64,000 nt of DNA from an uncultured Clostridiaceae bacterium (lineage in GTDB: Bacteria; Bacillota; Clostridia; Ch29): NCBI GenBank assembly GCA_964508195.1, contig CAZDSH010000001.1, forward strand, positions 131,351 through 195,350, read 5' to 3'. Below the pieces are notes generated by a model. It was given only the letters and a program-made list of their open reading frames with translations, was not told the DNA's origin and ran no database searches. The translations under genes were made by a program, and so were the position numbers. The first letter of the stretch is position 1, and every line of letters begins with the position of its first letter. Shown piece after piece: positions 31,136-63,898 of this stretch.

Positions 31136-31225
31136 TTATAGTTCCACCTCCGGGATTTTTGCCTTAAACCGCTTGGAAAAAAAGCAGTATTGTATATTTC
31201 ATACTATGCAAAATCCCGAAGAGTG

Positions 31226-32338: not shown

Positions 32339-32342
32339 TTTA

Positions 32343-33446: not shown

Positions 33447-33448
33447 TG

Positions 33449-34813: not shown

Positions 34814-34828
34814 GACGTTATTCCTTCC

Positions 34829-38643: not shown

Positions 38644-38662
38644 ATAATTACCTCTATTTCCA

Positions 38663-40657
38663 CTATACCTCCCGGTTTTGGTGGTTATAGTCTTCAAGAT
38701 ATAGTAGCACTATGGATTTCTCCGACACCATTATATCAGGTTTAGGAGTCTGGTCAACTATGGGGTTAAGGCCCTCCTCCACTACATTTCCCACTACCTG
38801 ATACTGAAGATTTCTATCGCTTAAAACCTTTATTGCATCCTGTAAAGGCATGCCCACAACATCGGGCACGGAAATCCTTTCCTGGATTAATTTTTCCGCC
38901 TCGTCCTCCGTATACCTCGGTTGTACCTTTAAATATCTTAATGTATCACTTAATATACTACCTACTACCGGTGCCGCTATCTGGCCCCCGTAATAGTTCC
39001 CGGGATCTGGTTCATCAATGACTACGAGCAACACTACCTTCGGATCGTCTGCAGGGGCTATCCCGATAAAAGAGGCAACGTATCTACCTTGGACATACCT
39101 GCCATCGACTACTTTTTGTGCTGTACCAGTTTTACCCGCCACCCTAAAACCCGGTATATATGCGTTGGAACCAGTACCCGCTGATACCACTGTCTCCAGT
39201 ATCTGCATTTCTGTTCGCGCCGTTTGTGGCGAAATAACCTGCCTTCTGAATTTAGGCGCAAATTCCCGGACGGTATTACCTTCCCCGTCCTTAAGCCCGA
39301 GGGCGATCCTAGGTTCCATTAACATACCTTCATTGGCGATAGCCGCCGCTGCGCTTACAAGCTGTATAGGAGTAACGGCCACTCCTTGGCCGAAACCCAT
39401 ATTGGCCAGCTCCACGGGTCCTACGCTCTTCGATTCCATTACAAGGCCGTATGCCTCGCCGGGTAATTTGACACCCGTTGGTTCACCGAAGCCAAAGGCC
39501 CTTATATAATCGAGGAATTTCTCCTTACCTAGACGTTGGGCCACTTCAATAAAGACAGGGTTACATGAATTTTGTGCCGCCTCTACAAAGGTCTGGTGCC
39601 CGTGGGGCGCGTAACTCCTCCAGCATTTTAAGTTCCGTCCGCCGACGCTAATAAATCCTTTACAGTAAAAAGTGCTCTCTGGCGCGATTACTCCTTCCTC
39701 TAGCCCCGCTGCGGTAGTGATTATTTTAAATGTAGAACCGGGCTCATACAGATCGGATACGGCATAATTCCTCCACATCTTTAACCTCTCATCCCTTAGT
39801 TCCTCCGCCGAAAGCCCTTCCCAGGACCTTTGGTCGCCGGTTTCTAACGGATCGAAGGGTGTATTCGGATCGTAATCAGGCTTCACCGTCAACGCTAATA
39901 TGTCCCCGTTTTTAGGGTCTATCATAATCGCGGCGCCTTTCTTTGCGTTTGTATTTATAACCGCCTCCTCTACAGCCTTTTCCGCGAAATGCTGTATAAC
40001 TTCATCTATGGTTAATACAAGGTGATACCCATCCTTTGGGGAGTACTGTGTATCAAACCCGAAGGGTATCCGGCGGCCTGCGGCATCGGTCTCGGATATA
40101 TTCCTACCGGGGAGGCCGTATAAATACGTGTCGAACAGCGCCTCTACCCCGTCTAAACCTTGGTTGTCCGCCCCGGTAAAACCCAGTATATGGGCGGCAA
40201 AGTTCCTGTTGGGATAATACCTTTTACTATCGTCCACGGGGTACAATCCTTCGATATCCCTTATGCTATCCACAATTTCCTTCTCCACTCGCCTTTTTAA
40301 AAGCACCGTATCTACTTTCCGTGTAAGCCTGTCGAGTACATCCTCTCTGTCCATGCCCAGCACCTCTGCGAGTCTGTAGGATACGTTCTCAACATCCTTT
40401 ATCTCTATAGGTCTTACGTACAGAGTCTCTATGCTAGCGCTTATAGCTAGTTTTTTTCCATTTCTATCATATATTATACCCCTCTTAGATGGGATAGGTA
40501 TATCCCTTCGCCATTGTTCCACCGCCATATCCCTGTACTTATCGCCGCATACCACCTGTATCCAAGCAAGCCTCAGAAATAAGGCGAAAAACAGAAAAAG
40601 CGCTGTAAAAAGGCAAAATATAAGCCTTTTTTTATGCCTTATCTCCAAAGTAGCCAC
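38663..40657 (-). CDS. Class B penicillin-binding protein (FtsI/SpoVD-type transpeptidase) with C-terminal PASTA domain(s).
   Basis: SxxK (STFK), SxN and KTGT motifs. N-terminal TM segment plus a dimerisation domain. The C-terminal region is PASTA-like. Length is 664 aa. Confidence 0.88.
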   Translation of the reverse strand: MATLEIRHKKRLIFCLFTALFLFFALFLRLAWIQVVCGDKYRDMAVEQWRRDIPIPSKRGIIYDRNGKKLAISASIETLYVRPIEIKDVENVSYRLAEVLGMDREDVLDRLTRKVDTVLLKRRVEKEIVDSIRDIEGLYPVDDSKRYYPNRNFAAHILGFTGADNQGLDGVEALFDTYLYGLPGRNISETDAAGRRIPFGFDTQYSPKDGYHLVLTIDEVIQHFAEKAVEEAVINTNAKKGAAIMIDPKNGDILALTVKPDYDPNTPFDPLETGDQRSWEGLSAEELRDERLKMWRNYAVSDLYEPGSTFKIITTAAGLEEGVIAPESTFYCKGFISVGGRNLKCWRSYAPHGHQTFVEAAQNSCNPVFIEVAQRLGKEKFLDYIRAFGFGEPTGVKLPGEAYGLVMESKSVGPVELANMGFGQGVAVTPIQLVSAAAAIANEGMLMEPRIALGLKDGEGNTVREFAPKFRRQVISPQTARTEMQILETVVSAGTGSNAYIPGFRVAGKTGTAQKVVDGRYVQGRYVASFIGIAPADDPKVVLLVVIDEPDPGNYYGGQIAAPVVGSILSDTLRYLKVQPRYTEDEAEKLIQERISVPDVVGMPLQDAIKVLSDRNLQYQVVGNVVEEGLNPIVDQTPKPDIMVSEKSIVLLYLEDYNHQNREV

Positions 40658-40740
40658 TTTCTTTCCCCCTTAGCCCCTACAATAATACTTATGAACGGTT
40701 ATATTTTTGCCCCTTTTATATTTAAAGGATTTTAAGGGGC

Positions 40741-41226
40741 CTAGGGCCTTTTAAAAATTTTATTTATTGTATTCGTAAGGAACGAAAACAATCTGTTATC
40801 TAAAATACCAGCCTTTTGCGCTTCTTCGGGTTCTTTTGCGTACAGCAAATCCTCCTTTGACTTTTCCACTGCGACGTAAATTATATCCCTGCTATCGGGA
40901 TAAATCATACCTAACTGATGAAGGGCATAATGTTCTAACCTGTTTATATCCATAACCCGGGCGCGCTGAAGCTGTAACCTTTCATTTTCCTTGTGCAGTT
41001 CCGCTAATTCCTTTTCCATGGCCCTTATCCTAAAGTTATGTTCCGATATAACGGCAAAGCGTGAAATGACCAGAATCCCAATAGCTAAAATTACACAAAC
41101 CCTGATCAATGCCCTTCTTCTAATGCCGACCCTTTTTTTCCGGATCGGTTTTCTTTTTTTTATATCCGGTCTCTGAGCCTCGCCGGGTATAGTTTGATAG
41201 TATTGCCTTTGCCTTGCTACTATCAT
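40741..41226 (-). CDS. ftsL: Cell division protein FtsL-like.
   Basis: 161 aa with a basic N-terminus, a single TM segment and a coiled-coil (ELAELHKENERLQL). It sits between rsmH and the PBP gene. Confidence 0.7.
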   Translation of the reverse strand: MIVARQRQYYQTIPGEAQRPDIKKRKPIRKKRVGIRRRALIRVCVILAIGILVISRFAVISEHNFRIRAMEKELAELHKENERLQLQRARVMDINRLEHYALHQLGMIYPDSRDIIYVAVEKSKEDLLYAKEPEEAQKAGILDNRLFSFLTNTINKIFKRP

Positions 41227-41257
41227 TTTTATTCACCCCTTGATGCAATTAGAACTT

Positions 41258-42202
41258 TCATAGCCTTTGGGCAACCCTTAGCCCGGCGCTCCTAGATCTT
41301 GGGTTCTTATGGATCTCGTCTTTATCCGGGACTATCAATTTGCGATTGATTATCTTTATTATCGGTTTTTTTTCACATACGCAAATCGGTATTTCCGGGG
41401 GACAGGTGCATGGGTTTTCTAATTCTCTGAAGGTCCTTTTTATTTTCCTGTCCTCGAGGGAATGGAAGGTGATCACACAGATCCTGCCGCCGGTTTTCAA
41501 AAGCTGTACCCCGTCCTTTATTGCATCCTCTAATATTTCCAGTTCGTCGTTTACCGCTATTCTAAGGGCTTGGAATGTTCTCTTTGCGGGATGTGGTCCC
41601 CTTCTCCTAGCCGATGCAGGTATGGCAGCTTTTATTATGCTCACCAACTGCCCGGTAGTTTCTATGGGGGCCCTATCCCTACCGCGCACTATAAACTGTG
41701 CTATCCTTTTCGCCCACCGTTCTTCCCCGAATGTACTGATTATCGAAGTCAGATCCGCCTCATCATAACTATTCACGATCTCCTTAGCGTCTAAGGGTTG
41801 TCCCCTATCCATTCTCATGTCAAGGGGCGCATCCTGCATATAGCTAAACCCTCGTTCACCTTTATCCAATTGGAATGAGGACACGCCTAAATCCATCACT
41901 ATACCGTCTACATGGGTTATATTGCGGTCGCCTAAAAGGGATTTTATGTTCTTAAAGTTCCCATGTAACAAGATCGTCCTATCGGAATAGGCCGCCAACC
42001 TCTCCCGGGATATCTTTAGGGCAAAGGGATCCCTGTCAATCCCTATAAGTCTACCCTTTGTATCTAACCTTTTTAAAATCTCTAGGGAGTGTCCGCCTCC
42101 GCCTAGGGTAGCGTCAACATACGTGCCCCCGGGTTTTACGTTTAAATATTCAACAATCTCCCTTAACAATACCGGCCTATGTTCAGGCGTCATATTATTC
42201 AT
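41258..42202 (-). CDS. rsmH: 16S rRNA (cytosine1402-N4)-methyltransferase.
   Basis: Start [13 protein letters not shown], then [14 protein letters not shown] (the SAM-binding motif). Confidence 0.92.
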
Positions 42203-42227
42203 CTCCGGTCCGATCTAATACCCTTGA

Positions 42228-42659
42228 TCATATCCCAAGGCGCTCCATATTTTCTGCGATTTTATCGTATTCCTTTATTGTATCACTGCTGTATAGATCC
42301 CATCCCTCCACGCTCCAGATTTCCACCCGAGTAGAAACCCCTATAACTACAGCATCCTTTTCTATTGCCGCGTACTCCCTTAGATTTGCCGGGAGCAGTA
42401 TCCTACCTTGTTTGTCAAGTTCACATTCCGCAGCCCCCGAAAAGAAAAACCTAACAAAGGCCCTTGCATCCCTGGATGTAAGGGGAAGGGTTTTGAGCTT
42501 CTCTTCAAAATTACGCCATTCTATAAGGGGGTAGACGAAAAGACAATTATCGAGGCCCTTAGTCAATACAAATATCTCGCCTAGATCCTCTCTGAACTTA
42601 GACGGTATAATAAGCCTTCCTTTATTATCCAGGGAGTGATAGAACTCGCCTATAAACAC
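42228..42659 (-). CDS. mraZ: Division/cell wall cluster transcriptional regulator MraZ.
   Basis: [24 protein letters not shown] is the canonical MraZ N-terminus. The likely start is GTG at 42659. The ORF track extends to 42710. Confidence 0.88.
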
Positions 42660-42862
42660 TATGCCACCCCATTTAGGGACTGTTCCCCACTTCGTACCAC
42701 ATCTACCCACTTTTTTATTTAATTCTATATAACTTTCTGAATTCCTGCTTATTTTAAAAAATTTAAAATTAAAAAAGCATCGATGTACGATTTATAATCC
42801 GTCGTGGAATAGCCCTATCATACATCGGTGCTTTATAATTTAAACGTTAGAATAATTTATAA

Positions 42863-43594
42863 TTATTCTAATGCTCCCTTATTTCTGTAGAACATAATAA
42901 GTGTCCCGATTATTATTACGCCTATACTCACAAATTGGGCGGCCCTTATATTCCCAAGCATGAGACTGTCCGTCCGTAACCCCTCTACAAAAAACCTTCC
43001 TACGGAATAAAGAATTAAATATAATAAAAATATGTTACCCCTTGTTTTTCTCCTTTTACGGTACCCTAGGAGTATCAAAAATATTGAAAGGTTCCAAAGG
43101 GATTCGTATAAAAATGTAGGGTGCACCCTGAGACCGTCAACCATTATTCCCCAGGGCAGATCCGTAGGCACGCCATGGGCCTCCTGGTTTACAAAATTAC
43201 CCCACCGTCCGATGGCCTGTCCCAGTATAAGGCCCGGGGCCGCAACATCGACCAAGGCCCAAAAGTTTACGTCCTTTACCCTTGTATATATAACCGCCGT
43301 GATGATCGCTGCTATGAGGGTACCATGAATAGCTAAACCCCCACCCCTTATATTTAATATCTGCTTAGGATTCATTGAGTAGTACTCCCAGTTAAAAAAT
43401 ACATAATAAAGCCTTGCCCCTATAATACCCGAGGGTATTGCGAATATAACGAGATCCAGTATTATATTCTCATCCATACCGACCCTTTTAGACTCGCTCA
43501 AGGCATACAAAAGACCGCATACTATGCCGACGGCCATAATAATGCCGTACCACCTGACGGCTATACCGAATATTTCAAAAGCCACAGGATTCAT
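42863..43594 (-). CDS. lgt: Prolipoprotein diacylglyceryl transferase.
   Basis: Polytopic protein with the conserved start FEIFGIAVRWYG and the H103/Y235-type Lgt signature region. Confidence 0.85.
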   Translation of the reverse strand: MNPVAFEIFGIAVRWYGIIMAVGIVCGLLYALSESKRVGMDENIILDLVIFAIPSGIIGARLYYVFFNWEYYSMNPKQILNIRGGGLAIHGTLIAAIITAVIYTRVKDVNFWALVDVAAPGLILGQAIGRWGNFVNQEAHGVPTDLPWGIMVDGLRVHPTFLYESLWNLSIFLILLGYRKRRKTRGNIFLLYLILYSVGRFFVEGLRTDSLMLGNIRAAQFVSIGVIIIGTLIMFYRNKGALE

Positions 43595-43613
43595 ATCGTA
43601 CCCCCCTTTTTTT

Positions 43614-44909
43614 CTACTGCGGCGAAATTATTGATAGGGAAGAAACCCAAGGCTTTATATGCCCTTTAAACCTTTCCCTTACGGCCTCTAACTCTATCCC
43701 CTCTAATATCCCGATAAAATCCAAAAAGCTTGCCCCCTTAAAGTGGTAGGAAATGAAGTTAGAGGCTATATATTCTAACCTATCGAAGTTCCTCAGGTAT
43801 CTACCTAACAGCTTGTTCCTTGCCAGAAGAAATTCCTCCTGTTTTAGGTCATTTTGTTCCGTATCCATGATCCACCCTTTAATCATATCAAAAAGCCTAT
43901 CAGGATCAGGGGACTCGCCCCCTACCATGGAATAGGAATAATTCGTCTCCCCCACAAAATCGAAATTAAAGCTATCGTTTATAAGGCCATCATTATATAG
44001 CCTTTGGTACAGTTCAGAACTCTTTCCGAATAGCATCTCCAGTAAAACCGAAGTCATTATTTCCCTTTCAAAAAGTTCTTTCCCCGATAACTCCTTTTCG
44101 GTATCCTTAATGCCTATATTGAAAAGGGGCTGGGCCACGGCCAGGGCTTGCTTTGTCCTTTCTGCGCGGACACTTTCCGGCTCCTTCGGATAGAACCTTT
44201 TTATGCTATCCGCCCTCTTATCCGCCCCCGTCTTTATGCTTCTATCTATCAAATCTAGGGTATCTTCCACATCTATATTCCCTACTACAAACAAAGCCAT
44301 ATTGTCCGGGTGATAAAAAGTATTGTAGCATTTGTATAATATATCCCTATCTATACTAGTTATACTTTCAACGGTCCCGGCGATATCAACCCTTACGGGA
44401 TGTTCATGATACAAGCCTTGAAGCATGTTAAAAAGGCTTTTCCATTCGCCGTTATCATCATACATTTTGATCTCCTGGGCAATGATCCCCTTTTCCTTTT
44501 CCACATTTTCATCGGTAAAATGGGGTTCCTGCACAAACCCCAGTAACACTTCTAAACACTCGTAAAAGTTTTTAGTAGAGGAAAAAAGGTACGCGGTATT
44601 CGTAAAGCCCGTGTAGGCGTTGGCGGAGGCGCCTAACCTTGAGAACCGGTCGAATACATTCCCCCCTTCTTCCTCGAAGAGCTTATGCTCGAGGAAGTGG
44701 GCTACGCCCGCCGGTACCTCCGTTATATGTTCCTCACCGGGAACTATAAACTTCATATCCACGGAACCAAACCTCGTAGCAAATAGGGCAAATTGTTTCG
44801 AATACTCCTTTTTAGGGAGCAAAAAAACTTTAAGACCGCTGTCCAATTTTGAATAATATAGCTTTTCCCTTATCCTATCCATATTCATTTCCTTAAAGGA
44901 TACTGTCAT
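43614..44909 (-). CDS. M16 (pitrilysin/insulinase) family metallopeptidase.
   Basis: Inverted zinc motif HFLEH (HxxEH) is present. Length is 431 aa. Confidence 0.75.
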   Translation of the reverse strand: MTVSFKEMNMDRIREKLYYSKLDSGLKVFLLPKKEYSKQFALFATRFGSVDMKFIVPGEEHITEVPAGVAHFLEHKLFEEEGGNVFDRFSRLGASANAYTGFTNTAYLFSSTKNFYECLEVLLGFVQEPHFTDENVEKEKGIIAQEIKMYDDNGEWKSLFNMLQGLYHEHPVRVDIAGTVESITSIDRDILYKCYNTFYHPDNMALFVVGNIDVEDTLDLIDRSIKTGADKRADSIKRFYPKEPESVRAERTKQALAVAQPLFNIGIKDTEKELSGKELFEREIMTSVLLEMLFGKSSELYQRLYNDGLINDSFNFDFVGETNYSYSMVGGESPDPDRLFDMIKGWIMDTEQNDLKQEEFLLARNKLLGRYLRNFDRLEYIASNFISYHFKGASFLDFIGILEGIELEAVRERFKGHIKPWVSSLSIISPQ

Positions 44910-46204
44910 CTTTTTATTTCCTCCTTCACGGCCCTTTTATTACTAGTTAAGAAATATGTAACGACATGTTCTATTTCGTCGGCTATGCCCGTTACATCTT
45001 CCTTTGTCACCTGTTCTATCCTCTCTACCAGTACCTCTGGGGTCATGTCGTGGCCGGATACAATTTTGTTTATTAAGAAATCTACGATCTGTAATTGATT
45101 GTCCTGCATAGAATGAATACCGTTTATCAGCGCCTTTTTTGCCGCGGTAAGCTCGCTATCCGATATGTTACCCCCTTGCATCTCGTCTAACTGTTCGTTT
45201 ATTATGCCAAGGGTTTTGTCGTAATTATCTATCTCAATACCGGCACCTATGACCATAAGTCCTTTAAAACTCTCTAACCGGGAAAAGGAATAATAGGCAA
45301 GGCTAGCCTTTTCCCTGACATTGTTAAAGAGCTTTGAATGTGCCCCTCCCCCTAGTATGCTGTTATAAACCAACATGGGAACGTATCGGACATCGGCATA
45401 ATCCACGCCGGTGGTATAACCTATCGTAATTTTACCTTGGCTTACATCCATAGGTTCAATTACTTCCCTAGGTTTATCCTGTTCGATGGATAATACATCC
45501 TGCCGTGGATATTTTATATCCAGCCTTTTAAGGGTCGGCGGATTGTCCAAAAAGGGTTTCAGATCGGCTATATCTACATCCCCCACTACGAATATATCTA
45601 TAGGGGCCTCGGTTATAATATCCTCGTAATGCCTCGCTAACCCCTCGGGGGTCAGGCTCTTTAGTTCTTCCGTACCACCATATCTATACCTGCCGAAGGG
45701 CTGCCCCTTGGCCATCTCCTCGTAACATCGGTCTATAGAGTACTGAATCTTATCGTTTATCCTCGAATTTATCAGTTCTCCGAGATTGTGTTTCTCCTGA
45801 TTAAAGTATTCCTCCTTAAAGCCTGTCCCTTCAATGAGCGGCCTCTCTATAAGCCCCGTTAAAAAGTGCAGTATATCGGCTACTACACCTTCACCCTTAA
45901 TAGTATACTTATCGCTTATCACATCGCTACCCATATAGATTAACTGCACATCACCTTTTTTTAACACATCCACGTTTAACGAGGCGCCATAGCACTTTCC
46001 CAGGAATCTTTCAATAGCCCCCATATCCCTTAAATCCTCATTACCCCGTTTAAGCACACGGGGTAGCAGTGCATTGCCCGTCGTATTTACATCTAAGGAC
46101 CGGTGAACCAAAAGGTTTACTGAAACTGTTTTGAATTTCGGTTCCCTAATAAGATATAAATTGATCCCTTCTCCAAGCCGTTCTTTGTAGTATATACCCT
46201 CCAT
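44906..46204 (-). CDS. M16 family peptidase-like protein without an HxxEH motif. It is probably the non-catalytic partner.
   Basis: 432 aa with M16-like architecture. 4-nt overlap with the downstream active M16 gene. Confidence 0.6.
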   Translation of the reverse strand: MEGIYYKERLGEGINLYLIREPKFKTVSVNLLVHRSLDVNTTGNALLPRVLKRGNEDLRDMGAIERFLGKCYGASLNVDVLKKGDVQLIYMGSDVISDKYTIKGEGVVADILHFLTGLIERPLIEGTGFKEEYFNQEKHNLGELINSRINDKIQYSIDRCYEEMAKGQPFGRYRYGGTEELKSLTPEGLARHYEDIITEAPIDIFVVGDVDIADLKPFLDNPPTLKRLDIKYPRQDVLSIEQDKPREVIEPMDVSQGKITIGYTTGVDYADVRYVPMLVYNSILGGGAHSKLFNNVREKASLAYYSFSRLESFKGLMVIGAGIEIDNYDKTLGIINEQLDEMQGGNISDSELTAAKKALINGIHSMQDNQLQIVDFLINKIVSGHDMTPEVLVERIEQVTKEDVTGIADEIEHVVTYFLTSNKRAVKEEIKR

Positions 46205-47738: not shown

Positions 47739-48317
47739 TTAATCGGTGATCACTTCTACCATATCGCCGTTGCTAAGGCCCGCTGCATTGCCTTCTTCCA
47801 CGTCTATGTGCATATCCAGTGCAAAGTTTGGCGCTACCCTTATAAGTACATTTTCAAATACGAGACCTCGCATACCCTCGGCCCTGACCTTAACCCTTTG
47901 GAAATCCTCTACGCCAAAGGCCTTCGCATCGTCAGGGTGCATGTGAATATGCCTTGCCGCTACTATAACGCCTTTATCCAGCTCTACCTCACCCTTTGGC
48001 CCGATAATCTTTGCGCCGGGGGTACCCTCTATGTCCCCGGAATCCCTTACCGGAACCTTAAGCCCTAGCTTATAGGAATCCGATACCGATATCTCAATCT
48101 GTGTTGCACTCCTTACGGGACCTAGAATCCTAACGCCTTTAAGCGTCCCCTTCGGCCCTACTATGTCTACTTTTTCCTCACAGGCGTATTGCCCCGGTTG
48201 GGTTAAAATTTTAAACTCCGTCAGCTGATGCCCCTCACCGAAGAGTTTGTCGAGGTGTTCCTGTGTTACGTGTAAGTGCCTATTGGAAAGTCCAATGGAT
48301 ACCTTTTTACCGCTCAT
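47739..48317 (-). CDS. pduL: Phosphate propanoyltransferase / phosphotransacylase PduL.
   Basis: The two PduL repeats are present, each with an RHxH motif (SNRHLHV and ARHIHMH). Length is 192 aa. Confidence 0.75.
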   Translation of the reverse strand: MSGKKVSIGLSNRHLHVTQEHLDKLFGEGHQLTEFKILTQPGQYACEEKVDIVGPKGTLKGVRILGPVRSATQIEISVSDSYKLGLKVPVRDSGDIEGTPGAKIIGPKGEVELDKGVIVAARHIHMHPDDAKAFGVEDFQRVKVRAEGMRGLVFENVLIRVAPNFALDMHIDVEEGNAAGLSNGDMVEVITD

Positions 48318-49673: not shown

Positions 49674-50279
49674 CTAGGGGCAATAAAAGTCATGGTTGCC
49701 TATAGTCGTTACGTATTCTAACCTTTCCCTAAACCATTTGGCAGCACCCTTGCCTGCAAGGTTTTCATATATAAAAAACAGTGCATTCCCTACGGTTTGC
49801 CCGTTATCCCCCGCGGGTTTTTCCCCCGCTAAGGCATCCATAGCGGCTCTATAGGCCTCTTCACCGGGTTCTTTGTTCTTCCATCCGCCATCGGTTAACG
49901 GTTGAAATTGGCCCCTTTGGTATATTACGCCCTTTATAGTATCGGGAAAGTTTTCGCTCATAACCCTATTCAGTACAACAGCCCCGACCGCTACCTTACC
50001 GTCATAGGGCTCATAGCGGGCTTCACACTCTATTATCTTTGCTAATAGGTAAAGGTCCTCCTCCTTATCCTTATCTATCCCCTTTGCGCCTCGGCTTACT
50101 ACGGCCCCTGGGCTTAATGCAGCGGGCATCATCCTTTGATCCTGTAAAGGCGTTACCCCCGGGGCACTAAGATAAGTATCCTCTATAGGTTTAACGCTAT
50201 CCTGTCCCCCCGTTAGCAGTATCATCGCCGTTATTGAAATGACGGCCCAGAATACTGCCCTTTGTGCTTTTATCATCAT
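49674..50279 (-). CDS. Cell wall hydrolase of the SleB/CwlJ family (spore cortex-lytic enzyme-like).
   Basis: The C-terminal Hydrolase_2 domain (LLAKIIECEARYEPYDGKVAVGAVVLNRV...IGNHDFYCP) matches the SleB catalytic domain. N-terminal signal peptide. Start at MMIKA with GGAGGA upstream. Confidence 0.8.
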   Translation of the reverse strand: MMIKAQRAVFWAVISITAMILLTGGQDSVKPIEDTYLSAPGVTPLQDQRMMPAALSPGAVVSRGAKGIDKDKEEDLYLLAKIIECEARYEPYDGKVAVGAVVLNRVMSENFPDTIKGVIYQRGQFQPLTDGGWKNKEPGEEAYRAAMDALAGEKPAGDNGQTVGNALFFIYENLAGKGAAKWFRERLEYVTTIGNHDFYCP

Positions 50280-50395
50280 TTTCTCCTCCTGCTTATGGAA
50301 ACTTAAACCAACACAAGTCAGAACTATACCATGTATTGGAATACATTGCAACCTCCCTACTGTTTATATCCATTTTTTATATAAAATATAACCAT

Positions 50396-51459: not shown

Positions 51460-51683
51460 TTAGTATAGTTGCTTTACCGATGAATTTTGCCGCCGTTTAT
51501 ACTTGTTAACATAAAGCCTCGGTTATCATATCTCTAAACATCAGCCGCTTCTCTGTGGCCCATAAGTTTTAAACGCACTTTTTAGGTTTTTGTGCAATCA
51601 TTTTTGGCATATTATTTATAGCGGTTTTCTCAGTCTAGTATACCATTTTAACAAAAAAAAGAAAAACCTGCACTCTGTGCAGG

Positions 51684-52811
51684 CTATATTCCTAACCATG
51701 GTCTGGGGTTAACTACCTCTCCATCCTTTCTAACCTCGAAGTGCAGGTGCGGCCCTGTGGATACGCCGGTACTTCCCGATAATGCTATGGTCGTCCCTGC
51801 GGCGACAACCGCCCCGACTTTGACCTTAAGGCTCGAATTGTGCGCATAGAGGGTTACTATCCCGCCGCCGTGGTCCACCATCACCGTTTCACCGTATCCG
51901 CCGTAGGTATCGGAATATATTACCCTCCCGGCTCCCGCTGCCACTACTTTTTTGCCCCAGGGAACGCGTATGTCTATGCCGGAATGGAACTTGTTCGTCT
52001 TGTATATGGGATGCAACCGCCATCCGTAGTCCGATGTGATATAAGTATAGCCCGGGGCCGGCCATACAAACTTCCCGCCTACGAATTCGCCGCCCTGGGT
52101 AAGACTAAGTATTGTCTGCGTTATCTGTCTTGAGGTTTCTTCGAGCTCCGCCAACATCTTGTCCAATTCTTTTTCGTCGTTTTTTACCCTGGCTAGGGCA
52201 CTATTCCTGCTGGCAGTAACGGTTTTAATCTCTTCCTTCTGCCTAAGGAGATTGTTTTTAAGGGTTAGCATCTTTATTTCTTTTTCCTTAACTTCGTCCT
52301 CCTTAGCCTGTACTAAATCCCGGTATCCCTTTAGCTCCTCTAGTATGGAGATATCGTAATCCGCAACTTTACTTACAAGATAAAATCGGGAAACAAAATC
52401 CGAAAAACTCTCCGCGTTAAGGAGTACCTCCAGATAGCCGTAGCCGCTGTTTTTATACATAGTTCTGAGCCTTTGTTTATAAAGGTCATCCCTTTTCTCT
52501 AGCTCTTTTTGGGCTTCTTCTAACTCCGCGGCAACCCTTTCTAACTCTTTTCTGGTAGCGTCAATATCCCTTTCTACCCGGCCTAATTGATTCTCCGCCT
52601 CGTTTAATTGGTTGTTCAGCCTTTCTAACTCTTTAATGAGGCTATTTTTCTGCTGTTGGATGTCCTTAAGCTCCCCTTGCCTATCTTGCATCTCCCGTTG
52701 TATTTCCTCAAGTTTTTTTTGTTCCTCTGCGAGGTTTGCATAAACCGCTGTGCTATGTAATAAAACTATTGACGCCGCCACTATTATCGACACTAATCTG
52801 GATTTTCCCAT
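51684..52811 (-). CDS. M23 family peptidoglycan metalloendopeptidase with an N-terminal coiled-coil (EnvC / SpoIIQ-unrelated type).
   Basis: Signal peptide and a long coiled-coil. The C-terminal LytM domain carries HxxxD and HLHFE motifs. Confidence 0.85.
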   Translation of the reverse strand: MGKSRLVSIIVAASIVLLHSTAVYANLAEEQKKLEEIQREMQDRQGELKDIQQQKNSLIKELERLNNQLNEAENQLGRVERDIDATRKELERVAAELEEAQKELEKRDDLYKQRLRTMYKNSGYGYLEVLLNAESFSDFVSRFYLVSKVADYDISILEELKGYRDLVQAKEDEVKEKEIKMLTLKNNLLRQKEEIKTVTASRNSALARVKNDEKELDKMLAELEETSRQITQTILSLTQGGEFVGGKFVWPAPGYTYITSDYGWRLHPIYKTNKFHSGIDIRVPWGKKVVAAGAGRVIYSDTYGGYGETVMVDHGGGIVTLYAHNSSLKVKVGAVVAAGTTIALSGSTGVSTGPHLHFEVRKDGEVVNPRPWLGI

Positions 52812-52989
52812 GCTAAAGACCCCCTGGATACAATGTTCTCCATCCATTTTATATCATAGGGGCCTATTTTGTCATACCCTTTGATGAAAATTTAATATAA
52901 TTGTAACACTTCATAATTATTACAGATTTCCTGTAAATATTTGTACCTCAATTATACTCCGGGTATCCTTAGACCATAGCCCCGCTCCT

Positions 52990-53418
52990 TTACATATCCC
53001 ACAGGGCCAGTTTCGTTGTTTCGTCGTATTTGCGTTCAAGGATCTCCCCCTCAAACTCATTGATTATAACCTCCGCCGCGAAAACAATCGTACCTTCCGC
53101 AAGGTGGCCTCCGAAGCTATGGCCCTTATCGTCCCCGAGCGTTATATGGGCGTGTATGAAGGGTTTACCATCCTTCGTCGTGATGTTCCCCATAAGACTT
53201 AAAACCTCCATGGGCTTTTCAAATAGAATGTCCCTATACTGTCCATTGCTACTATCGTAAAACCCTAATACCGCCCGCTTTACCGCACCGATCATCTGTA
53301 GTTTGCCGCACCTTATATCCTTTTTTGTCACAAATTCCGTTAACCCCTTAAGAAGGTCCGAGCCATGGGGTATGCGGCCTATATGCGTTTTTTTGTAAGC
53401 GTACTCATTCATTGCCAT
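52990..53418 (-). CDS. PPC domain (DUF296) protein.
   Basis: 142 aa with a DUF296-like pattern. TAATG overlap with deoC. Confidence 0.6.
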   Translation of the reverse strand: MAMNEYAYKKTHIGRIPHGSDLLKGLTEFVTKKDIRCGKLQMIGAVKRAVLGFYDSSNGQYRDILFEKPMEVLSLMGNITTKDGKPFIHAHITLGDDKGHSFGGHLAEGTIVFAAEVIINEFEGEILERKYDETTKLALWDM

Positions 53419-54113
53419 TATAAATCCTCCTCCTGATATTTCTGTACGAACTCATGTAATATTCTTATTCCGTTGCTACTTCCTATACGGTTTGCCCCCG
53501 CTTCTACCATGTCTTTAAAAGTTTCAAAGTCCCCTATGCCCCCTGCCGCCTTCACCCCCATATCGGGCCCTATGATTTTTCTGATGAGCTTGACATCGGT
53601 TATAGTTGCCCCTGCGCTGCCAAAGCCCGTAGAGGTTTTAATGAAGTCTGCGCCACTTTCCTTGGCAATATTGCATAATGTCACCTTTTCATCATAGTTA
53701 AGGAAACATGTCTCTATTATCACTTTAACTATCCTGTCCCCCGCAGCCTTTTTTACTTCGATTATTTCCCTCTCTACCCCCTTGTATTCCCTATCCTTTA
53801 CCGCCCCTATATTCACGACCATGTCCAATTCGTGGGCCCCCGTCTCCAGCGCACTTTTGGCCTGATATACCTTTGTATCGCTGCTATCGGCACCTAGGGG
53901 AAAACCTATAACCGTACAAATTTTCACCGGTTTGTTCTCTAAAAGCCGCGCCACCCTTTTAACCCGGCAGGGGTTAACGCAGAGGGCGTAAAACCCTTTA
54001 TCTAGGGCCTCGTTGCACAGCTTTTCGATTTCTCGTCGGTCCGCATCAGCTTTTAACAGCGTATGATCAATAAATTTTGCAACATCCCCGGGCTTTTGAA
54101 AAACGTAAGACAT
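53418..54113 (-). CDS. deoC: Deoxyribose-phosphate aldolase.
   Basis: 231 aa. Catalytic-lysine region FIKTSTGF and the GGIGDFETFKDMVEAGANRIGSS segment. Confidence 0.9.
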   Translation of the reverse strand: MSYVFQKPGDVAKFIDHTLLKADADRREIEKLCNEALDKGFYALCVNPCRVKRVARLLENKPVKICTVIGFPLGADSSDTKVYQAKSALETGAHELDMVVNIGAVKDREYKGVEREIIEVKKAAGDRIVKVIIETCFLNYDEKVTLCNIAKESGADFIKTSTGFGSAGATITDVKLIRKIIGPDMGVKAAGGIGDFETFKDMVEAGANRIGSSNGIRILHEFVQKYQEEDL

Positions 54114-54118
54114 CAGAA

Positions 54119-55543
54119 TTATCGTCTCCTCATATATCTATTTATCATGTCCTGGGTAATAACGCTACCGGATAAGATACCGGGCTGTGTACCGGGTTTT
54201 GAAAGGCCCTTTATCTCCTTACGAAGTTCCGTTATCTGTGATTCTAATGTATCGAACCTGTCCTTTACACCCTGTTTCATAGCCTCTATTTCCGCCTTCA
54301 ATTCTTCAACCCCATAACCCTTCGTTAGCGGAGCCTCCCCCCCGTTATTATCCTTTTCGTAGGCATCATCATAGTTTCCTATACCGGACTCCCCTCCCTC
54401 AGCCGTAGTGTACCCATGCCGTGCCTTCGATCCATGGCCATTTTCAACCCCGTCCGCCGCAGGCGGTATAGCCAGCTTTATCCTTTCAACGGATCTATGC
54501 AGGAAGGGGATATGAATATCCGGTGGGGAGGTGGCTATTAGTTTCTTTGCATTTAACAGCAGCGAATAGGTACCGTCAAAACCGTAGATCTCTAATTCCC
54601 TACCCCGGGTATGGTGATAATATTTAACCTGACCCCAACTATCGCCCCCGTCATAGGAGGCACGATATCCTAAACTTCCCGCTTCAACCCAGGCTATGTA
54701 AAGGGTATTACGCCTGCTTATTAAAACCGGACCTTCCTCTATATGCCCCGCCTCGATTATCAACTGGGGGTGCATAACATCTATACGCCGAACATCCCTT
54801 ACAAAGAATACGCCCTCGTCATTCCGTAACATTATGGAGCCCTCCCGGAACTCCATATACATTGTCTTTTCCCAGGTACTGTTATCCTTTGTTGCGGATA
54901 ATGTCCACTGGGTACCGTCAAAGTCCCATAACAAAAGGGTACCATTATTTATAGCGGCTATTTTTAGGCCATTATTTTTCCCGATATCCCTATCATAGCA
55001 TATATCTTTAACCCTGTCGGGCATATCGAATACCCTATAGCCCACCCATTCGGTACCGGTCCATTGGTGATGAAAAAGTGCGCAGCCGCCACCCTTTTCG
55101 GAATATACATAAAAAAGGTGCAGACCACCGGATGCCTTCATTATTTTCAGATTGGATATACTGACGGGTTTTCCGGCAAAGTCGTATAGGGTATATCTCA
55201 CCCAACCTTTAAAATCATGGCGGCTGTAGACTACCCGCTGTCCCGCAGTTAGGGCTACTACATGGATATCATCCCGATCATCAATTATTATATCATATTC
55301 CGTAACGGTTTCGTCCATTATTAGATGCCCCGCCTCGGATGCGCCCCTACTCCGGCTTACTACATAGCCGGTTCTGCCCGAGGCCAAGGGATAGAACAGC
55401 CATGCGTTTCTTTTGCTGTCGATAACTATCTTTTTTTCGTATACGCCCTCGATCAAAATATCACCCCCCATAAAAATATATGCCCAGTTAGGACAATTAG
55501 AAGAAACACATATTGATAGATGCACCAAAAACATGCCTGCCAC
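54119..55543 (-). CDS. Hypothetical protein of 474 aa. It has repeated Trp-rich beta-strand motifs and a C-terminal disordered, coiled-coil, basic tail.
   Basis: Long ORF tightly coupled to deoC (5-nt gap). No family is recognised. Start uncertain (GTG at 55543 or a downstream ATG). Confidence 0.5.
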   Translation of the reverse strand: MAGMFLVHLSICVSSNCPNWAYIFMGGDILIEGVYEKKIVIDSKRNAWLFYPLASGRTGYVVSRSRGASEAGHLIMDETVTEYDIIIDDRDDIHVVALTAGQRVVYSRHDFKGWVRYTLYDFAGKPVSISNLKIMKASGGLHLFYVYSEKGGGCALFHHQWTGTEWVGYRVFDMPDRVKDICYDRDIGKNNGLKIAAINNGTLLLWDFDGTQWTLSATKDNSTWEKTMYMEFREGSIMLRNDEGVFFVRDVRRIDVMHPQLIIEAGHIEEGPVLISRRNTLYIAWVEAGSLGYRASYDGGDSWGQVKYYHHTRGRELEIYGFDGTYSLLLNAKKLIATSPPDIHIPFLHRSVERIKLAIPPAADGVENGHGSKARHGYTTAEGGESGIGNYDDAYEKDNNGGEAPLTKGYGVEELKAEIEAMKQGVKDRFDTLESQITELRKEIKGLSKPGTQPGILSGSVITQDMINRYMRRR

Positions 55544-55601
55544 ATATATTACTACTGCAACGAGGATATTTATCTAATTATGTAAGAAAGGAGTTGAATA
55601 T

Positions 55602-56279
55602 ATGTCTTTCTATACTGCTGCCAGCAGGGAAAATGAAAACTGCCCCGGGCTTGTGGCCGGCGGCCAGGGCGCCCTCGGGGTACGGGAAAGGGTTTGCGTA
55701 CAAGTAAAGAAAGTATATGATGCATGTTTACAGCAGTTGGTCCTCGAGGATGAGAGGGTAGTAATATGCCCTACGGGGGGACCTTTTACAAGGCCTTTAA
55801 GTTTTGTTAAATGTAGAAGCATAAAATCTAAAGGGGTTATAAAAAACCTAAAAATTAATAAGATAAGGGATCGTCGTCATTTTGCAAGGGTAAGGGGAAA
55901 TGTGGAGGTACCTATTATCGTTGAATTCGTTGATGCCAATGGAGTTAAGGGTACGGGTACTGCGGTGATAACCGTTCGTAAGGATGTGGTACTCTTTGTA
56001 CCTAGGGATTCTATTATCCCCTTCGAGGTAGAAGCGATGGTAGGCGCCACCTGTGCAGATGGTACATTCCTTAATGATTTCAGGTTTAGACTAGACCTTT
56101 GCATTACAGTAATAATGAAGGTAATCGCGGAAGTAGAACTTTTGATCCCCGCTTATGGTTTTTGTTTCATACCCCCCTGCGAGGAATTCGCCGAAGCTAT
56201 ATGCACAGAATTTTTTGGACTTCCGTTGTTCCCTCCACAGTTAGAAGATATCCGGCGTAGACAAGACCATTGTAACTAA
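55602..56279 (+). CDS. Hypothetical Cys-rich protein of 225 aa.
   Basis: AAAGGAG ribosome-binding site 7 nt upstream of the ATG. Multiple CxxC-like cysteines. Divergent from the 474-aa gene. A strong terminator follows. Confidence 0.55.
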   Translation: MSFYTAASRENENCPGLVAGGQGALGVRERVCVQVKKVYDACLQQLVLEDERVVICPTGGPFTRPLSFVKCRSIKSKGVIKNLKINKIRDRRHFARVRGNVEVPIIVEFVDANGVKGTGTAVITVRKDVVLFVPRDSIIPFEVEAMVGATCADGTFLNDFRFRLDLCITVIMKVIAEVELLIPAYGFCFIPPCEEFAEAICTEFFGLPLFPPQLEDIRRRQDHCN

Positions 56280-62212: not shown

Positions 62213-63826
62213 TCAATACCCTTCGATAGTCCCTGCTATTCTGTTCATAAGGACCGCCATTTGGCCCCTGGTTATATTTTCTGTAGGTTTAAAGGTACCG
62301 TCATCGTATCCGACGAACACTCCACGGCTGTTCATCTCTCTAATAGCTTCGTAGGACCATTGACCACGATTAACATCCCTGAAGGGGACATCCTTTTCCT
62401 TTGCAATGTCATCATCGGCATCAATAATCCTTCCTAGGATGACCGCCATCTCTTCCCTGGTAAGGGGTTCCTCGGGACAAAAACTGCCCTGCCCTTTGCC
62501 CTTAACTATACCATGCTCCCAGGCCGTATGTATTTCCCGAGCAGCCCAATGCCCGCCGGGCACATCGTTAAAATAGCCGGTCCCATGACTATTTTGAAGT
62601 CCTAAGGCCCTTACTATTACCGTTGCAGCCTGGCTCCGGGTAAGGGGGCTATCCGGGGCGAAATGGGTACTGGATATACCCTGCATCCAACCCCTGCTCT
62701 CTATATCGGCGATATCCCCCTGGGCCCAATGTCCGAAACTATCCATGAACCAATCCCCGTTAAGCCAAAGGCCAAAATAATCCCAGGTATCAGCGGTCTC
62801 CTGGCCTAGGCTCCAGCTACCGGCCCCCTTTAGCCCGTACTTTTGTACGAGACGTAATTTATGTTTGATCGAATCCTCGTTTTCGAACCACATTACGTAG
62901 GTACCCTGGGGGAGGCTCTTACCGAACAACTTATAATCCCCGCTTCCGGGCCCGACTGTCATGATCGCCTTCGGTGAGGCGGTATATTTATCAAATTCTA
63001 CCTTTCCGTTAAATCTTTTTAACATCTCATGGGCTTTGTTTAAATGCACTCCATAGCCGCCATATTTCTGGCCTACTCGCCAATATCTGCCATAAAAAGG
63101 AACCCCTAATACGATTTTTTCCGCGGGCACGTATTTAAGGGCATATTTTATGGAATCCTCGACAAAGGATAGGCTCGCTACGGGCCCTTGTACGCCGCCC
63201 TCGCTATGCTCGTCGTAGGCCATTATTACTAAATAATCGCTGTACCGGGCTAAAGCCGCGTAATCATAGGAACCCTGCCATCCATTATTAACACCCTTCG
63301 CATTTGCGGCTACGGCTACGGATACCTCCTTTGCCCGGGGTAATTTATCCCGGATTAACCTTACAAGTTCCACATAATCTTCCCGATCCCTTTCCGTGAG
63401 GTTTTCTATATCCACGTTAACCCCATCGAACCCGTATTCCTCTATGGCCTTCGCTATCTGTTCAGCTAACCTTTCCCTATTAGCCATAGCCGCCCTACCC
63501 TTGGCCCTATCCCAATGGTTGCTCAAAAACGGGGCAACCCTTATACCCCGTTCTTCCATGGCCCTTAGGAAATCCCTATCAGTCGCGCCGTTAAGCACTA
63601 AATTTCCCCCTAGGTCCAGGTCAAAGTAACCGGGGGAAACCACATCAAAGGCGCCGCCGGTTTTGTCTACGTTCTGTATAAACGCCCGGGTATCCCCGAA
63701 ATATATGTACGTCATATTAAACCTTTCGCCCTTCGCAAGAGTCCCGTTACAAAAAACAAAACCCATGATTATACTAAAAACTATGCCTATCTTTACAATT
63801 TTCTCCCTAAATATCGGTCTATTCAT
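62213..63826 (-). CDS. Glycoside hydrolase family 18 protein with two C-terminal SLH (S-layer homology) domains.
   Basis: GH18 motif region (FDGVNVDIENL, catalytic DxxDxDxE-like). Two SLH repeats (FNDVPGGHWAAREI... and FRDVNRGQWSYEAI...ITRGQMAVLMNRI). Signal peptide. Start at MNRPIF with AAAGGGGAA upstream. Confidence 0.75.
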   Translation of the reverse strand: MNRPIFREKIVKIGIVFSIIMGFVFCNGTLAKGERFNMTYIYFGDTRAFIQNVDKTGGAFDVVSPGYFDLDLGGNLVLNGATDRDFLRAMEERGIRVAPFLSNHWDRAKGRAAMANRERLAEQIAKAIEEYGFDGVNVDIENLTERDREDYVELVRLIRDKLPRAKEVSVAVAANAKGVNNGWQGSYDYAALARYSDYLVIMAYDEHSEGGVQGPVASLSFVEDSIKYALKYVPAEKIVLGVPFYGRYWRVGQKYGGYGVHLNKAHEMLKRFNGKVEFDKYTASPKAIMTVGPGSGDYKLFGKSLPQGTYVMWFENEDSIKHKLRLVQKYGLKGAGSWSLGQETADTWDYFGLWLNGDWFMDSFGHWAQGDIADIESRGWMQGISSTHFAPDSPLTRSQAATVIVRALGLQNSHGTGYFNDVPGGHWAAREIHTAWEHGIVKGKGQGSFCPEEPLTREEMAVILGRIIDADDDIAKEKDVPFRDVNRGQWSYEAIREMNSRGVFVGYDDGTFKPTENITRGQMAVLMNRIAGTIEGY

Positions 63827-63898
63827 GTCCGTTCCCCTTTCTTCTTTATAATAAAAATAATAAGTTAGGGGGACATAAATAGCAATGCACAATTTATG

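Follow-up and report, generated by a model that had tools for sequence, protein, structure and literature searches.

To our knowledge, no function has been published for the family of proteins encoded divergently from csxA, and we know of no clostridial homologues of the proteins that anchor the exosporium in Bacillus; these anchoring proteins therefore do not account for how the CsxA lattice is positioned around the spore. CsxA itself forms the basal lattice of the exosporium (PMC7333573; bioRxiv 10.64898/2026.09.03.749163), and the ORF beside its gene figures in a 2020 paper only as the "highly conserved divergent partner" of csxA. Here we describe a gene, X, in a 64,000-nucleotide stretch of DNA from an uncultured Clostridiaceae bacterium (the whole stretch is referred to as the window), where X, deoC, and a PCC/DUF296 gene make up a run of three tightly packed ORFs on the minus strand. 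Judged by homology, head-to-head position, and architecture, X is a member of the uncharacterized csxA-divergent-partner family of Clostridia. An earlier, sequence-only reading of this DNA had looked downstream, to deoC, and overlooked the informative neighbor, the csxA-like gene that is divergently oriented upstream of X.

The X family and its predicted architecture

The sequence-only reading had given X a length of 474 aa; this was revised when the start codon was reassigned, as follows.

54119..55543, minus strand: X ORF as listed, 474 aa counted from GTG
54119..55456, minus strand: X coding sequence as corrected, 445 aa plus stop, with a TTG start, encoding propeller and coiled coil
55461..55469, minus strand: X ribosome-binding site, GGGGGGTGA, its GGGGGTG core kept in 10 of 10 loci

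The real start of X is almost certainly the TTG at position 55456, from which the protein begins MIEGVYEKK. This codon aligns with the ATG or TTG starts of all homologues (start codons were aligned in 10 loci) and is preceded by the ribosome-binding site above; the sequence 5' of it is non-coding and constitutes a conserved promoter. An NCBI homologue (P0001) has 445 aa and is 100% identical to X.

Only 20 close homologues of X were found among the 5.8 billion proteins searched, and a profile search returned 263 distant relatives. With hmmsearch, the X-family profile gave 45 matches at ≤1e-10; the top 150 were mostly about 350 to 620 aa long, and those looked at further matched X in length and architecture. 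No match to X was obtained in Pfam (nothing at an E value of 0.1 or better), NCBIfam, PHROGs, or the PDB sequences, and the earlier description of X as a large unrecognized protein thus holds; the family in which homology searches place it is uncharacterized. Likewise, no paper joining "exosporium," "beta-propeller," and "coiled-coil" for a protein of this type was found in the literature. When the X-family alignment (A1) was compared by hhalign with an alignment of the Clostridium partner ORFs (A5), the two matched at 99.1% (E = 6.4e-19) over 310 columns that cover the whole propeller, with about 22% identity between X and the partner ORFs over this domain. All named source organisms of the family, mostly uncultured metagenome-assembled genomes, are Clostridia or unclassified Bacillota, and the named isolates carrying it all belong to spore-forming genera.

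The AlphaFold2 model of X comprises a confidently predicted seven-bladed beta-propeller, a linker, a coiled coil, and a C-terminal helix.

54467..55456, minus strand: seven-bladed beta-propeller (residues 1 to 330), with degenerate Asp-box-like W..G..W repeats
54635..54658, minus strand: single canonical Asp-box (BNR), S-Y-D-G-G-D-S-W (residues 267 to 274), from alignment A1
54314..54466, minus strand: disordered Gly/Asp/Glu-rich linker (residues 331 to 381), with pLDDT <50 at 333 to 381
54203..54310, minus strand: coiled-coil helix (residues 383 to 418), from the AlphaFold2 model
54122..54169, minus strand: conserved basic amphipathic C-terminal tail, GSVITQDMINRYMRRR, from alignments and moment analysis

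The Trp-rich motifs from which the sequence-only reading had suggested a propeller or beta-sandwich (LLLWDFDGTQW and HHQWTGTEW) are present in X, and the model settles on the propeller; it also bears out the beta-rich N-terminal domain, Gly/Asp-rich disorder, coiled coil, and basic tail described there. Within the Asp-box, S267, Y268, D269, G271, and W274 are invariant in A1 and S273 nearly so. The linker differs among homologues in length and sequence, with abundant insertions and deletions in A1. The coiled coil ranges from about 36 to >200 residues across the superfamily alignment (A4), and the equivalent region of distant relatives matches coiled-coil Pfam families. In the tail, A1 shows no variation at G430, Q435, I438, and N439, and a superfamily motif of two hydrophobic residues, any residue, R, two hydrophobic residues, and two or three K/R is found again in the relatives from Clostridium and Caldanaerobius. 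The hydrophobic moment of the tail is about 0.5 to 0.75 in 18 of 20 sequences and its net charge +2 to +6, values comparable to those of the FtsA membrane-targeting sequence and SpoVM. At the other end, the N-terminus, MIEGVYEKKIVIDSKRN, contains no hydrophobic stretch and is modeled as all-beta from residue 8; by inspection, X has neither a signal peptide nor a transmembrane segment.

One candidate function of the tail, prompted by a PduL gene in the window, was discarded.

47739..48317: PduL, the basis for the microcompartment idea

If X were cargo of a microcompartment or encapsulin, targeted by its C-terminal peptide, shell genes might be expected; none was present at 28 to 64 kb of the window, which holds the dcw cluster and housekeeping genes, and the tail is unlike known cargo peptides.

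The propeller could also be a lectin or a GH145/PL25/PL42-like enzyme that acts on the cortex or on spore-surface glycans such as those of a glycosylated collagen-like nap. The canonical Asp-box speaks for such an activity, as do weak BNR_2 and BNR_4 Pfam matches in distant members and glycosyltransferase/epimerase genes that lie beside the X/csxA pair in two loci (L004 and L017) and near csxA in C. sporogenes. However, X is about 10% identical to each of its structural matches, it falls short of any Pfam match at the E value given above, it would be cytoplasmic given that no signal peptide is present, and no glycan-related genes lie near it in the window. Furthermore, no residues suggesting a ligand site were found superfamily-wide in A4: nearly every invariant position there is occupied by an aromatic or a hydrophobic core residue, and these positions form no catalytic constellation. 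We therefore regard a glycan-directed function as unlikely. A protein that mainly recognizes or processes glycans, and is not a scaffold for CsxA, would still overlap partly with the explanation preferred below.

The divergent csxA-like gene and the promoters of the pair

Upstream of X and on the opposite strand lies a gene, Y, whose start (55602, plus strand) is separated from that of X (55456, minus strand) by a spacer of 145 nt containing promoter elements for both.

55602..56279, plus strand: Y, 225-aa cysteine-rich CsxA homologue, conserved divergent partner of X
55524..55551, plus strand: sigma-K-type promoter of Y, with AC, 17 nt, and CATATATTA
55475..55507, minus strand: X promoter region, with the GTTTCTTCTAATT block, 11 variable nt, and GCATATATT, a mother-cell-type -10 (CATAnnnT)

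By homology, Y belongs with the CsxA family (PF27077): it matched C. sporogenes CsxA (BLASTP, 5e-11; hhalign, 97.8%, E = 1e-12, 195 columns), a Caldanaerobius CsxA-like protein (BLASTP, 5e-28), and a C. pasteurianum protein that itself matches PF27077 (BLASTP, 8e-10). Y is 82% identical across loci in which X is 41 to 51% identical.

Seen from the X side, the divergent neighbor is Y in 11 distinct close-family loci. At L004, a SipL/SPOCS-domain gene adjoins X instead, and the Y homologue lies 7.6 kb from X beside cotE, with CotS/YutH kinase and glycosyltransferase genes in between; Y has no BLAST similarity to this SipL-domain neighbor, and the two are linked only via the published claim of a SPOCS superfamily. 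The distant relatives of X in Caldanaerobius, C. tertium, C. pasteurianum, Aminipila, and L023 are all divergent beside CsxA genes; by locus, the head-to-head arrangement of the window holds in 10 further close loci and in L017 to L020 and L023. The C. pasteurianum locus reads pheT, zapA, CsxA divergent from the X-like gene, and a U32 peptidase gene, an order that fits the published account of csxA, whose divergent partner is described there as "highly conserved." From the Y side, a divergent X-like gene was found in 46 of the 67 evaluable metagenomic csxA-like loci, at a median distance of 129 nt. Another gene, e.g., a DUF1015-like gene, lies upstream in about 27% of csxA-like loci, and locus L022 has no adjacent csxA.

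We then examined the promoters of the pair, using as the type tested a -10 of CATAnnnT(A) with a -35 of ATA for sigma-E or AC for sigma-K; the consensus sequences were taken from PMC3789822. These patterns occur window-wide at chance frequency (4 found versus 5.7 expected), and for this reason they carry weight only through their position and their conservation across loci. The -35 and -10 blocks of the Y promoter are nearly invariant across 10 loci. More widely, AC-N16/17-CATAnnnT was present in all 37 distinct upstream regions of csxA-like genes, 48 to 72 nt before the start, compared to a mean of 1.6 and a maximum of 6 in shuffled regions. Genes resembling csxA, preceded by sigma-K-type promoters, thus extend well beyond what Pfam annotation shows and reach into uncultured Clostridia of anaerobic digesters.

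On the X strand, the promoter blocks are invariant in 10 loci except for the first base of the GTTTCTTCTAATT block, while the flanks vary, and the implied leader is short, about 12 to 14 nt. L004 has a matching TTCTAWTT-N12-CATA arrangement, and Caldanaerobius has GCATATATTT. No canonical sigma-K or sigma-E -35 was found for X of the window when looked for; in the window clade this region (TCTAATT-N12) is a clade-specific conserved block, noncanonical for either factor. Across the wider X family, the canonical sigma-E-type pattern ATAWW-N13-15-CATAnnnT was present in 17 of 37 regions, with a mean of 0.49 and a maximum of 3 in shuffles, and in none of these regions was it present on the Y strand.

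Since a family of propeller/coiled-coil proteins stands back-to-back with csxA in many Clostridia, the most likely role of X is in the assembly of the spore envelope and not in nucleoside metabolism. Specifically, with somewhat more confidence than doubt, we propose that X is a mother-cell sporulation protein that acts with the CsxA-like protein in building the outer spore envelope, i.e., the exosporium or the outermost coat layer; the pointer to the spore coat in the sequence-only reading was apt. X would be produced before CsxA, like known morphogenetic proteins ahead of the layers they organize. It may oligomerize via its coiled coil, its C-terminal helix may dock it on the outer membrane of the forespore or on the coat underneath, and its propeller may bind CsxA or glycans on envelope proteins, such that X would serve to nucleate the CsxA lattice, anchor it, or set its spacing. 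We infer this role, including expression, localization, and binding, for hosts that are uncultured and in which exosporium formation is putative. The presumed C. sporogenes partner, whose accession G9F2F9 was deduced from accession order, is absent from the 68 proteins listed from purified exosporium; this absence fits an assembly factor and not a stable structural component.

A more specific and more tentative version, which we hold to be possible but doubtful, is that the X family constitutes a widespread early (sigma-E) mother-cell tether, with the helix as anchor, the coiled coil as spacer, and the propeller capturing or nucleating CsxA, and that it is the missing link between coat and exosporium. 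The length of the coiled coil would then set the spacing, and the role would be like that of CotE, ExsA, and CotO with an unrelated fold.

It is also conceivable that X is a general coiled-coil envelope or cytoskeletal protein with no specific part in sporulation and that its adjacency to csxA is inherited synteny. Cell division commonly involves coiled-coil proteins that have an amphipathic membrane-targeting tail, the pair adjoins zapA in Clostridium sensu stricto, and the pairing is absent from L022 and from about one-quarter of csxA-like loci. We nonetheless give this little credence: the divergent pair is kept across orders while its surroundings change, the mother-cell-type motifs on the X strand lie far above shuffles, and the named hosts described above are confined to Clostridia and unclassified Bacillota, with isolates in spore-forming genera.

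The downstream deoC and PCC genes

Downstream of X, the cluster continues as follows.

53418..54113, minus strand: deoC, deoxyribose-phosphate aldolase (TIGR00126, 259 bits against a cut-off of 117)
52990..53418, minus strand: PCC/DUF296 gene (PF03479, 119 bits), overlapping the deoC stop
51685..51665, minus strand: the sole convincing terminator on this strand, past the next gene, which encodes an M23 peptidase

Five nucleotides, TTCTG, separate the X stop from the deoC ATG, and the deoC stop and PCC start overlap as TAATG; this packing, noted in the sequence-only reading, was confirmed from the ORF list and the sequence. No terminator-like sites were found between the three genes, and scanning the window and the one long X-to-deoC spacer (240 nt, in L010) against Rfam returned one tRNA and nothing else. 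The packing is not due to chance. In every close-family locus for which sequence downstream is available, X is again adjacent to deoC. Across 12 loci, with gaps of 5 to 73 nt, no terminators, and the 240-nt spacer as the one exception, co-transcription is probable, which sustains the claim of a single operon to that degree; deoC and the PCC gene probably share the X transcript in the window clade only. In the PDB, the relatives of the PCC protein (2h6l, 2dt4, and 3htn) bear no other names than "hypothetical" or "putative DNA-binding protein."

From this packing, and from the purine nucleoside phosphorylase gene punA about 3 kb downstream, it had been proposed that X, deoC, and the PCC protein act in one pathway, in which deoxynucleoside or deoxyribose catabolism is tied to a further activity. 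The distance to punA is correct, but the functional link is not upheld: punA lies beyond the M23 gene and the terminator and is a separate transcription unit, and deoA, deoB, nupC, and deoR were not found near X and deoC in the window. The adjacency to deoC is confined to a narrow clade, and even there L004 has an M20 peptidase gene between X and deoC, and in L033 and L085 no PCC gene was detected after X. The clade shares synteny over about 15 kb (CobO, M20, CsxA-like, X, deoC, PCC, M23, PNP, SleB-like, and PduL), and because the whole stretch is syntenic, adjacency within it carries little functional information. Among loci of distant X relatives with at least 1.9 kb of downstream sequence, deoC, PCC, M23, or PNP was present downstream in 0 of 30, and the genes that do follow differ among Caldanaerobius, Clostridium, and Aminipila. 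The coupling to nucleoside salvage is unsupported. We consider a shared pathway very unlikely and take the deoC/PCC arrangement to be lineage specific, with no mechanistic tie to X. This removes a false lead.

Comparison with known systems

The E. coli deoCABD and B. subtilis dra-nupC-pdp operons have in common with the window a bona fide deoC, and the window also holds a purine nucleoside phosphorylase gene 3 kb away. A deo-type operon combines deoC with deoA, deoB, deoD, or nupC and a DeoR regulator, whereas the neighbors of deoC here are X, PCC, and M23; deoA, deoB, nupC, and deoR are missing. Unlike in the deo/dra operons, deoC stands between a sporulation-type gene on its 5' side and the PCC gene on its 3' side, and punA forms its own unit past the M23 gene and terminator.

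Among propeller proteins, the PLL-family lectins (Photorhabdus PLL, 5c9o; BP39L; and CV39L), PL25, PL42, and GH145 are seven-bladed like X, but identity is about 10%, with no detectable sequence homology, and the PLL lectins are secreted or soluble and lack the coiled coil and tail. With BNR/Asp-box propellers (PF13088 and PF15892), X shares one exact Asp-box (SYDGGDSW) and the degenerate W..G..W repeats, and the UniRef name of the Caldanaerobius family member is "BNR repeat-containing family member." The six-bladed BNR/sialidase type is marked by several Asp-boxes, a catalytic Arg triad with Tyr/Glu, and a match to the Pfam BNR models, whereas X has a single Asp-box and seven blades and stays below Pfam thresholds.

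[quoted passage not shown] X is related to them neither in sequence nor in fold: CotE, SipL, SpoVID, and CsxA are of the SPOCS/DUF3794 type, whereas X combines a propeller of seven blades with a coiled coil.

The closest counterparts of X are the Clostridium csxA-partner ORFs. Those of C. pasteurianum, C. tertium, C. puniceum, and others are homologous to X by the hhalign match above, stand head-to-head beside a csxA homologue, and have the propeller, coiled coil, and basic tail in common with it; for the C. sporogenes partner ORF, homology is deduced from its locus structure, identical to that of C. pasteurianum. The coiled coil is about 36 residues in X versus 100 to 200 or more in the Clostridium partners, X has in addition a Gly/Asp-rich disordered spacer, and the downstream genes are deoC and PCC in the one case and aminotransferase, Se/S-carrier, and U32 peptidase genes in the other. 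Altogether, a member of the X family next to csxA in several clostridial orders, apparently expressed earlier in the same cell and equipped with a head for binding, a stalk as spacer, and a putative anchor, is an obvious candidate assembly factor.

Gene order and synteny downstream of X

X lies in a closely packed run of minus-strand genes, whose features are as follows.

54119..55543, minus strand: X as it stands in the ORF list
54119..55456, minus strand: true X coding sequence, with a TTG start at 55456
55457..55543, minus strand: 5' over-extension of the X ORF, a conserved non-coding promoter and not coding sequence
53418..54113, minus strand: deoC (TIGR00126, 259 bits; cut-off, 117)
52990..53418, minus strand: PCC/DUF296 gene (PF03479, 119 bits)
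52875..52846, minus strand: sigma-70-like promoter belonging to the M23 gene
51684..52847, minus strand: M23 peptidase gene; the product has a PcsB-type coiled coil, and its HxxxD/HLH metal site is intact

The tight packing described in the sequence-only reading was borne out: a 5-nt spacer (TTCTG) separates the X stop codon from the deoC ATG, deoC and the PCC gene overlap at TAATG, and there is no terminator-like site between the three genes. The sole strong minus-strand terminator lies at 51685..51665, past the M23 peptidase gene next to PCC. Judged by its sequence, the deoC product is a bona fide deoxyribose-phosphate aldolase, and the solved structures related to the PCC product are all unnamed structural-genomics proteins. 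The length of 474 aa first given to X had to be revised; we judged this frame over-extended by 29 codons because the NCBI homologue is 445 aa long, the TTG of X lines up with the ATG or TTG starts of all relatives and is preceded by a conserved GGGGGTG ribosome-binding site, and the region upstream is a non-coding promoter. The GTG at 55543 that begins the longer frame falls within the promoter of the divergent gene, in its -10 element.

X is followed by deoC in all loci of its close family that have downstream sequence, with gaps of 5-73 nt and no terminator hairpins; the exception is one locus (L010) with a strongly structured 240-nt X-deoC spacer (5588..5829, MFE -59.6 kcal/mol) that has no match in Rfam. 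In L004, the close-family locus that is most distant, X and deoC are separated by an M20 peptidase gene. The window clade shares the collinear run CobO, M20, Y, X, deoC, PCC, M23, PNP, SleB-like and PduL. The deoC-PCC pair appears not to be fixed within the clade either, as in the sub-clade of L033 and L085 (Y 68% identical) no PCC homologue was detected downstream of X, and M23 is the next homologue detected after deoC. A rival reading, the link first proposed, makes X a nucleoside-salvage partner. When co-occurrence was checked, none of 30 loci with distant X-like genes (at least 1.9 kb downstream each) had deoC, PCC, M23 or PNP downstream, and the genes following X in Caldanaerobius, Clostridium and Aminipila are all different. 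X, deoC and PCC are probably co-transcribed in the window clade, and the coupling is restricted to this clade; the association is lineage-specific synteny, with no evidence of a shared pathway, and the salvage link was not upheld.

Further genes of the window are listed below; PduL is not accompanied by microcompartment shell genes in the part of the window that was read, 28-64 kb. The 559-aa protein is probably a cell-wall-anchored glycosidase.

49674..50351, minus strand: SleB-like cortex-lytic hydrolase gene, below the TIGR02869 cut-off
47739..48317, minus strand: stand-alone PduL phosphotransacylase
42863..46204: lgt and two M16 peptidase genes, adjoining mraZ at the high-coordinate end
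27690..43600, minus strand: complete dcw cluster (mraZ, rsmH, ftsL, PBP gene, murE, murF, mraY, murD, ftsW/spoVE, murG, murA-like gene, ftsQ and two DUF881-like genes)
62213..63892, minus strand: 559-aa protein, GH18-like in its N-terminal domain and ending in three SLH repeats

X is encoded head-to-head with a csxA homologue

Upstream of X lies the divergent gene Y, which is 82% identical across loci where X reaches only 41-51%.

55602..56279, plus strand: Y, an unannotated 225-aa cysteine-rich ORF, CsxA homologue, divergent from X

Precomputed Pfam annotation labels the matching divergent gene as CsxA (PF27077) in Caldanaerobius, C. tertium, C. pasteurianum and Aminipila. Y matched those labelled proteins by BLASTP at 5e-28 and 8e-10, and the experimentally studied C. 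sporogenes CsxA (sequence from the supplement of PMC4942563) at 5e-11, with 97.8% in hhalign. CsxA, a cysteine-rich protein, forms the exosporium's hexagonal basal lattice by self-assembly (PMC7333573). More than 180 Y homologues at ~39-100% identity, in Caldicoprobacterales, Christensenellales, Gehongia and others, are all called 'hypothetical' and lack a Pfam label; thus, csxA-like genes are far more widespread than annotation shows.

In C. pasteurianum the order is pheT, zapA, DUF4489, CsxA divergent from the X-like gene, and a U32 peptidase gene, exactly the arrangement described in PMC7333573, where 'a highly conserved ORF, organized divergently from csxA' ('csxA and its divergent partner') was left uncharacterised. 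When the X family was compared profile to profile with the Clostridium group, the probability was 99.1% (E 6e-19, 310 columns), showing that X is homologous to, and belongs to, the csxA divergent-partner family. We also approached the pairing from the Y side, using 80 metagenomic loci that encode Y homologues (45-81% identity for the full-length matches). A divergent X-like ORF was present in 46 of the 67 csxA-like loci having at least 1 kb upstream (median distance, 129 nt), with a very weak candidate in 3 more, and the remaining loci have a different neighbor, usually a DUF1015-like gene. The latter, ~420-466 aa as a stop-to-stop ORF, was seen in L037, L039, L041, L043, L061 and L068-L070. 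One distant X relative (L022) has no adjacent csxA. The X-csxA pairing is strong, not universal.

In L004, X adjoins a 155-aa SipL-domain gene and the Y homologue lies 7.6 kb away beside cotE, a layout that makes sense because CsxA, according to a 2026 preprint, has the SPOCS/DUF3794 fold common to CotE and SipL. Between the two lies a spore-coat island (L004:1..8000) that includes cotE and the SipL-domain gene, with genes for an NAD-dependent epimerase, two CotS/YutH-type kinases, a GT4 glycosyltransferase and a highly acidic 437-aa protein. Other genes recur near csxA/X pairs of unrelated lineages, namely a small PF11823 Se/S-carrier-like gene (L017, L018, L019, L023), a PF00188 CAP/SCP domain gene (L002, L003, L008, L017, L022) and PF14879 DUF4489 (L018-L020), and these may be part of the same spore-envelope neighborhood.

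The 145-nt X-Y spacer is strikingly conserved in 10 loci. On the Y strand (55524..55551, plus), CACC, 17 nt and CATATATTA fit the sigma-K consensus (AC at -35, CATAnnnTA at -10), with sigma consensus sequences taken from a summary covering C. difficile and B. subtilis (PMC3789822). AC-N16/17-CATAnnnT occurred 48-72 nt before the start codon in each of the 37 distinct regions upstream of Y homologues (shuffled controls: mean, 1.6; maximum, 6). On the X strand (55507..55475), loci of the window clade share an invariant GTTTCTTCTAATT, followed by 11 nt and GCATATATT; the -10 element is of the mother-cell type and the -35 region is non-canonical. Across the family at large, the sigma-E pattern ATAWW-N13-15-CATAnnnT was found in 17 of 37 X-strand regions (shuffled controls: mean, 0.49; maximum, 3) and in none of the Y strands. 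Because such short patterns alone occur at chance frequency across the window, the evidence lies in position and conservation. At the level of sequence motifs, both genes carry conserved mother-cell-type promoters.

Architecture of the X family

X is indeed a large unrecognised protein, with no match in Pfam, NCBIfam, PHROGs or PDB sequences and only 20 close homologues (32-100% identity) among 5.8 billion proteins. Their alignment shows a well-conserved N-terminal region of ~330 residues, a linker with many insertions and deletions, a helical segment and a strongly conserved C-terminus, GS(V/I)ITQDMINRYxRKK. With this alignment as input, AlphaFold2 confidently predicted an all-beta domain whose 28 strands form seven sets of four (block pLDDT, ~78-94), disorder at residues 333-381, a helix at 383-418 and a short terminal helix at 435-444. 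The Trp motifs earlier taken as a sign of a propeller or beta-sandwich fit this model as degenerate Asp-box-like hairpins; one, SYDGGDSW (residues 267-274), is a canonical Asp-box.

An exhaustive profile search with the X family returned 263 proteins at E <=1e-3 and 45 at <=1e-10; the best 150 matches are mostly 350-620 aa, many aligning end to end. The relatives examined come from Caldanaerobius fijiensis, Clostridium tertium, C. puniceum, C. saccharoperbutylacetonicum, C. diolis, C. pasteurianum, Aminipila and Sedimentibacter. They are unannotated save for weak coiled-coil and BNR matches, and their records read 'hypothetical' or 'coiled-coil domain-containing'. A rival reading takes X to be a general coiled-coil protein. 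X and its distant relatives share a propeller plus a coiled coil of very variable length. The tail usually has two hydrophobic residues, any residue, R, two hydrophobic residues and K/R-K/R (SIMERLLRRK, GIINRLLKK, DMINRYMRRR), and is amphipathic and cationic (hydrophobic moment, ~0.5-0.75 in 18 of 20 tails; net charge, +2 to +6). X is a predicted cytoplasmic protein of propeller, stalk and tail.

A proposed role in the spore envelope

The X family is real, conserved and uncharacterised, having been noted once before, in passing, as the divergent partner of csxA (PMC7333573). Our analysis adds a structure-based architecture, the extension of the family to distant, uncultured Clostridia, a quantified csxA-X pairing, the split between sigma-E (X) and sigma-K (Y) promoters, and the clade-specific nature of the deoC/PCC coupling. 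For spore-envelope biology, the family offers a good lead that can be tested, and no surprising new system. The 68 proteins published for the exosporium do not include the presumed csxA partner of C. sporogenes, whose accession was deduced from accession order; this is weak evidence, pointing to an assembly factor more than to a major structural component.

We propose that X would help to position, nucleate or tether the lattice of CsxA. The propeller may bind CsxA or envelope glycans (in a rival reading, X is a glycan-active propeller); the coiled coil would serve as oligomerisation element and spacer. In B. subtilis and C. difficile, the known morphogenetic proteins depend on sigma-E, and the outer structural layers on sigma-K; by this timing, X would be made in the mother cell, probably before CsxA. 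The amphipathic basic tail may anchor X to the forespore membrane or the underlying coat; its hydrophobic moment and charge are comparable to those of the FtsA membrane-targeting sequence and SpoVM.
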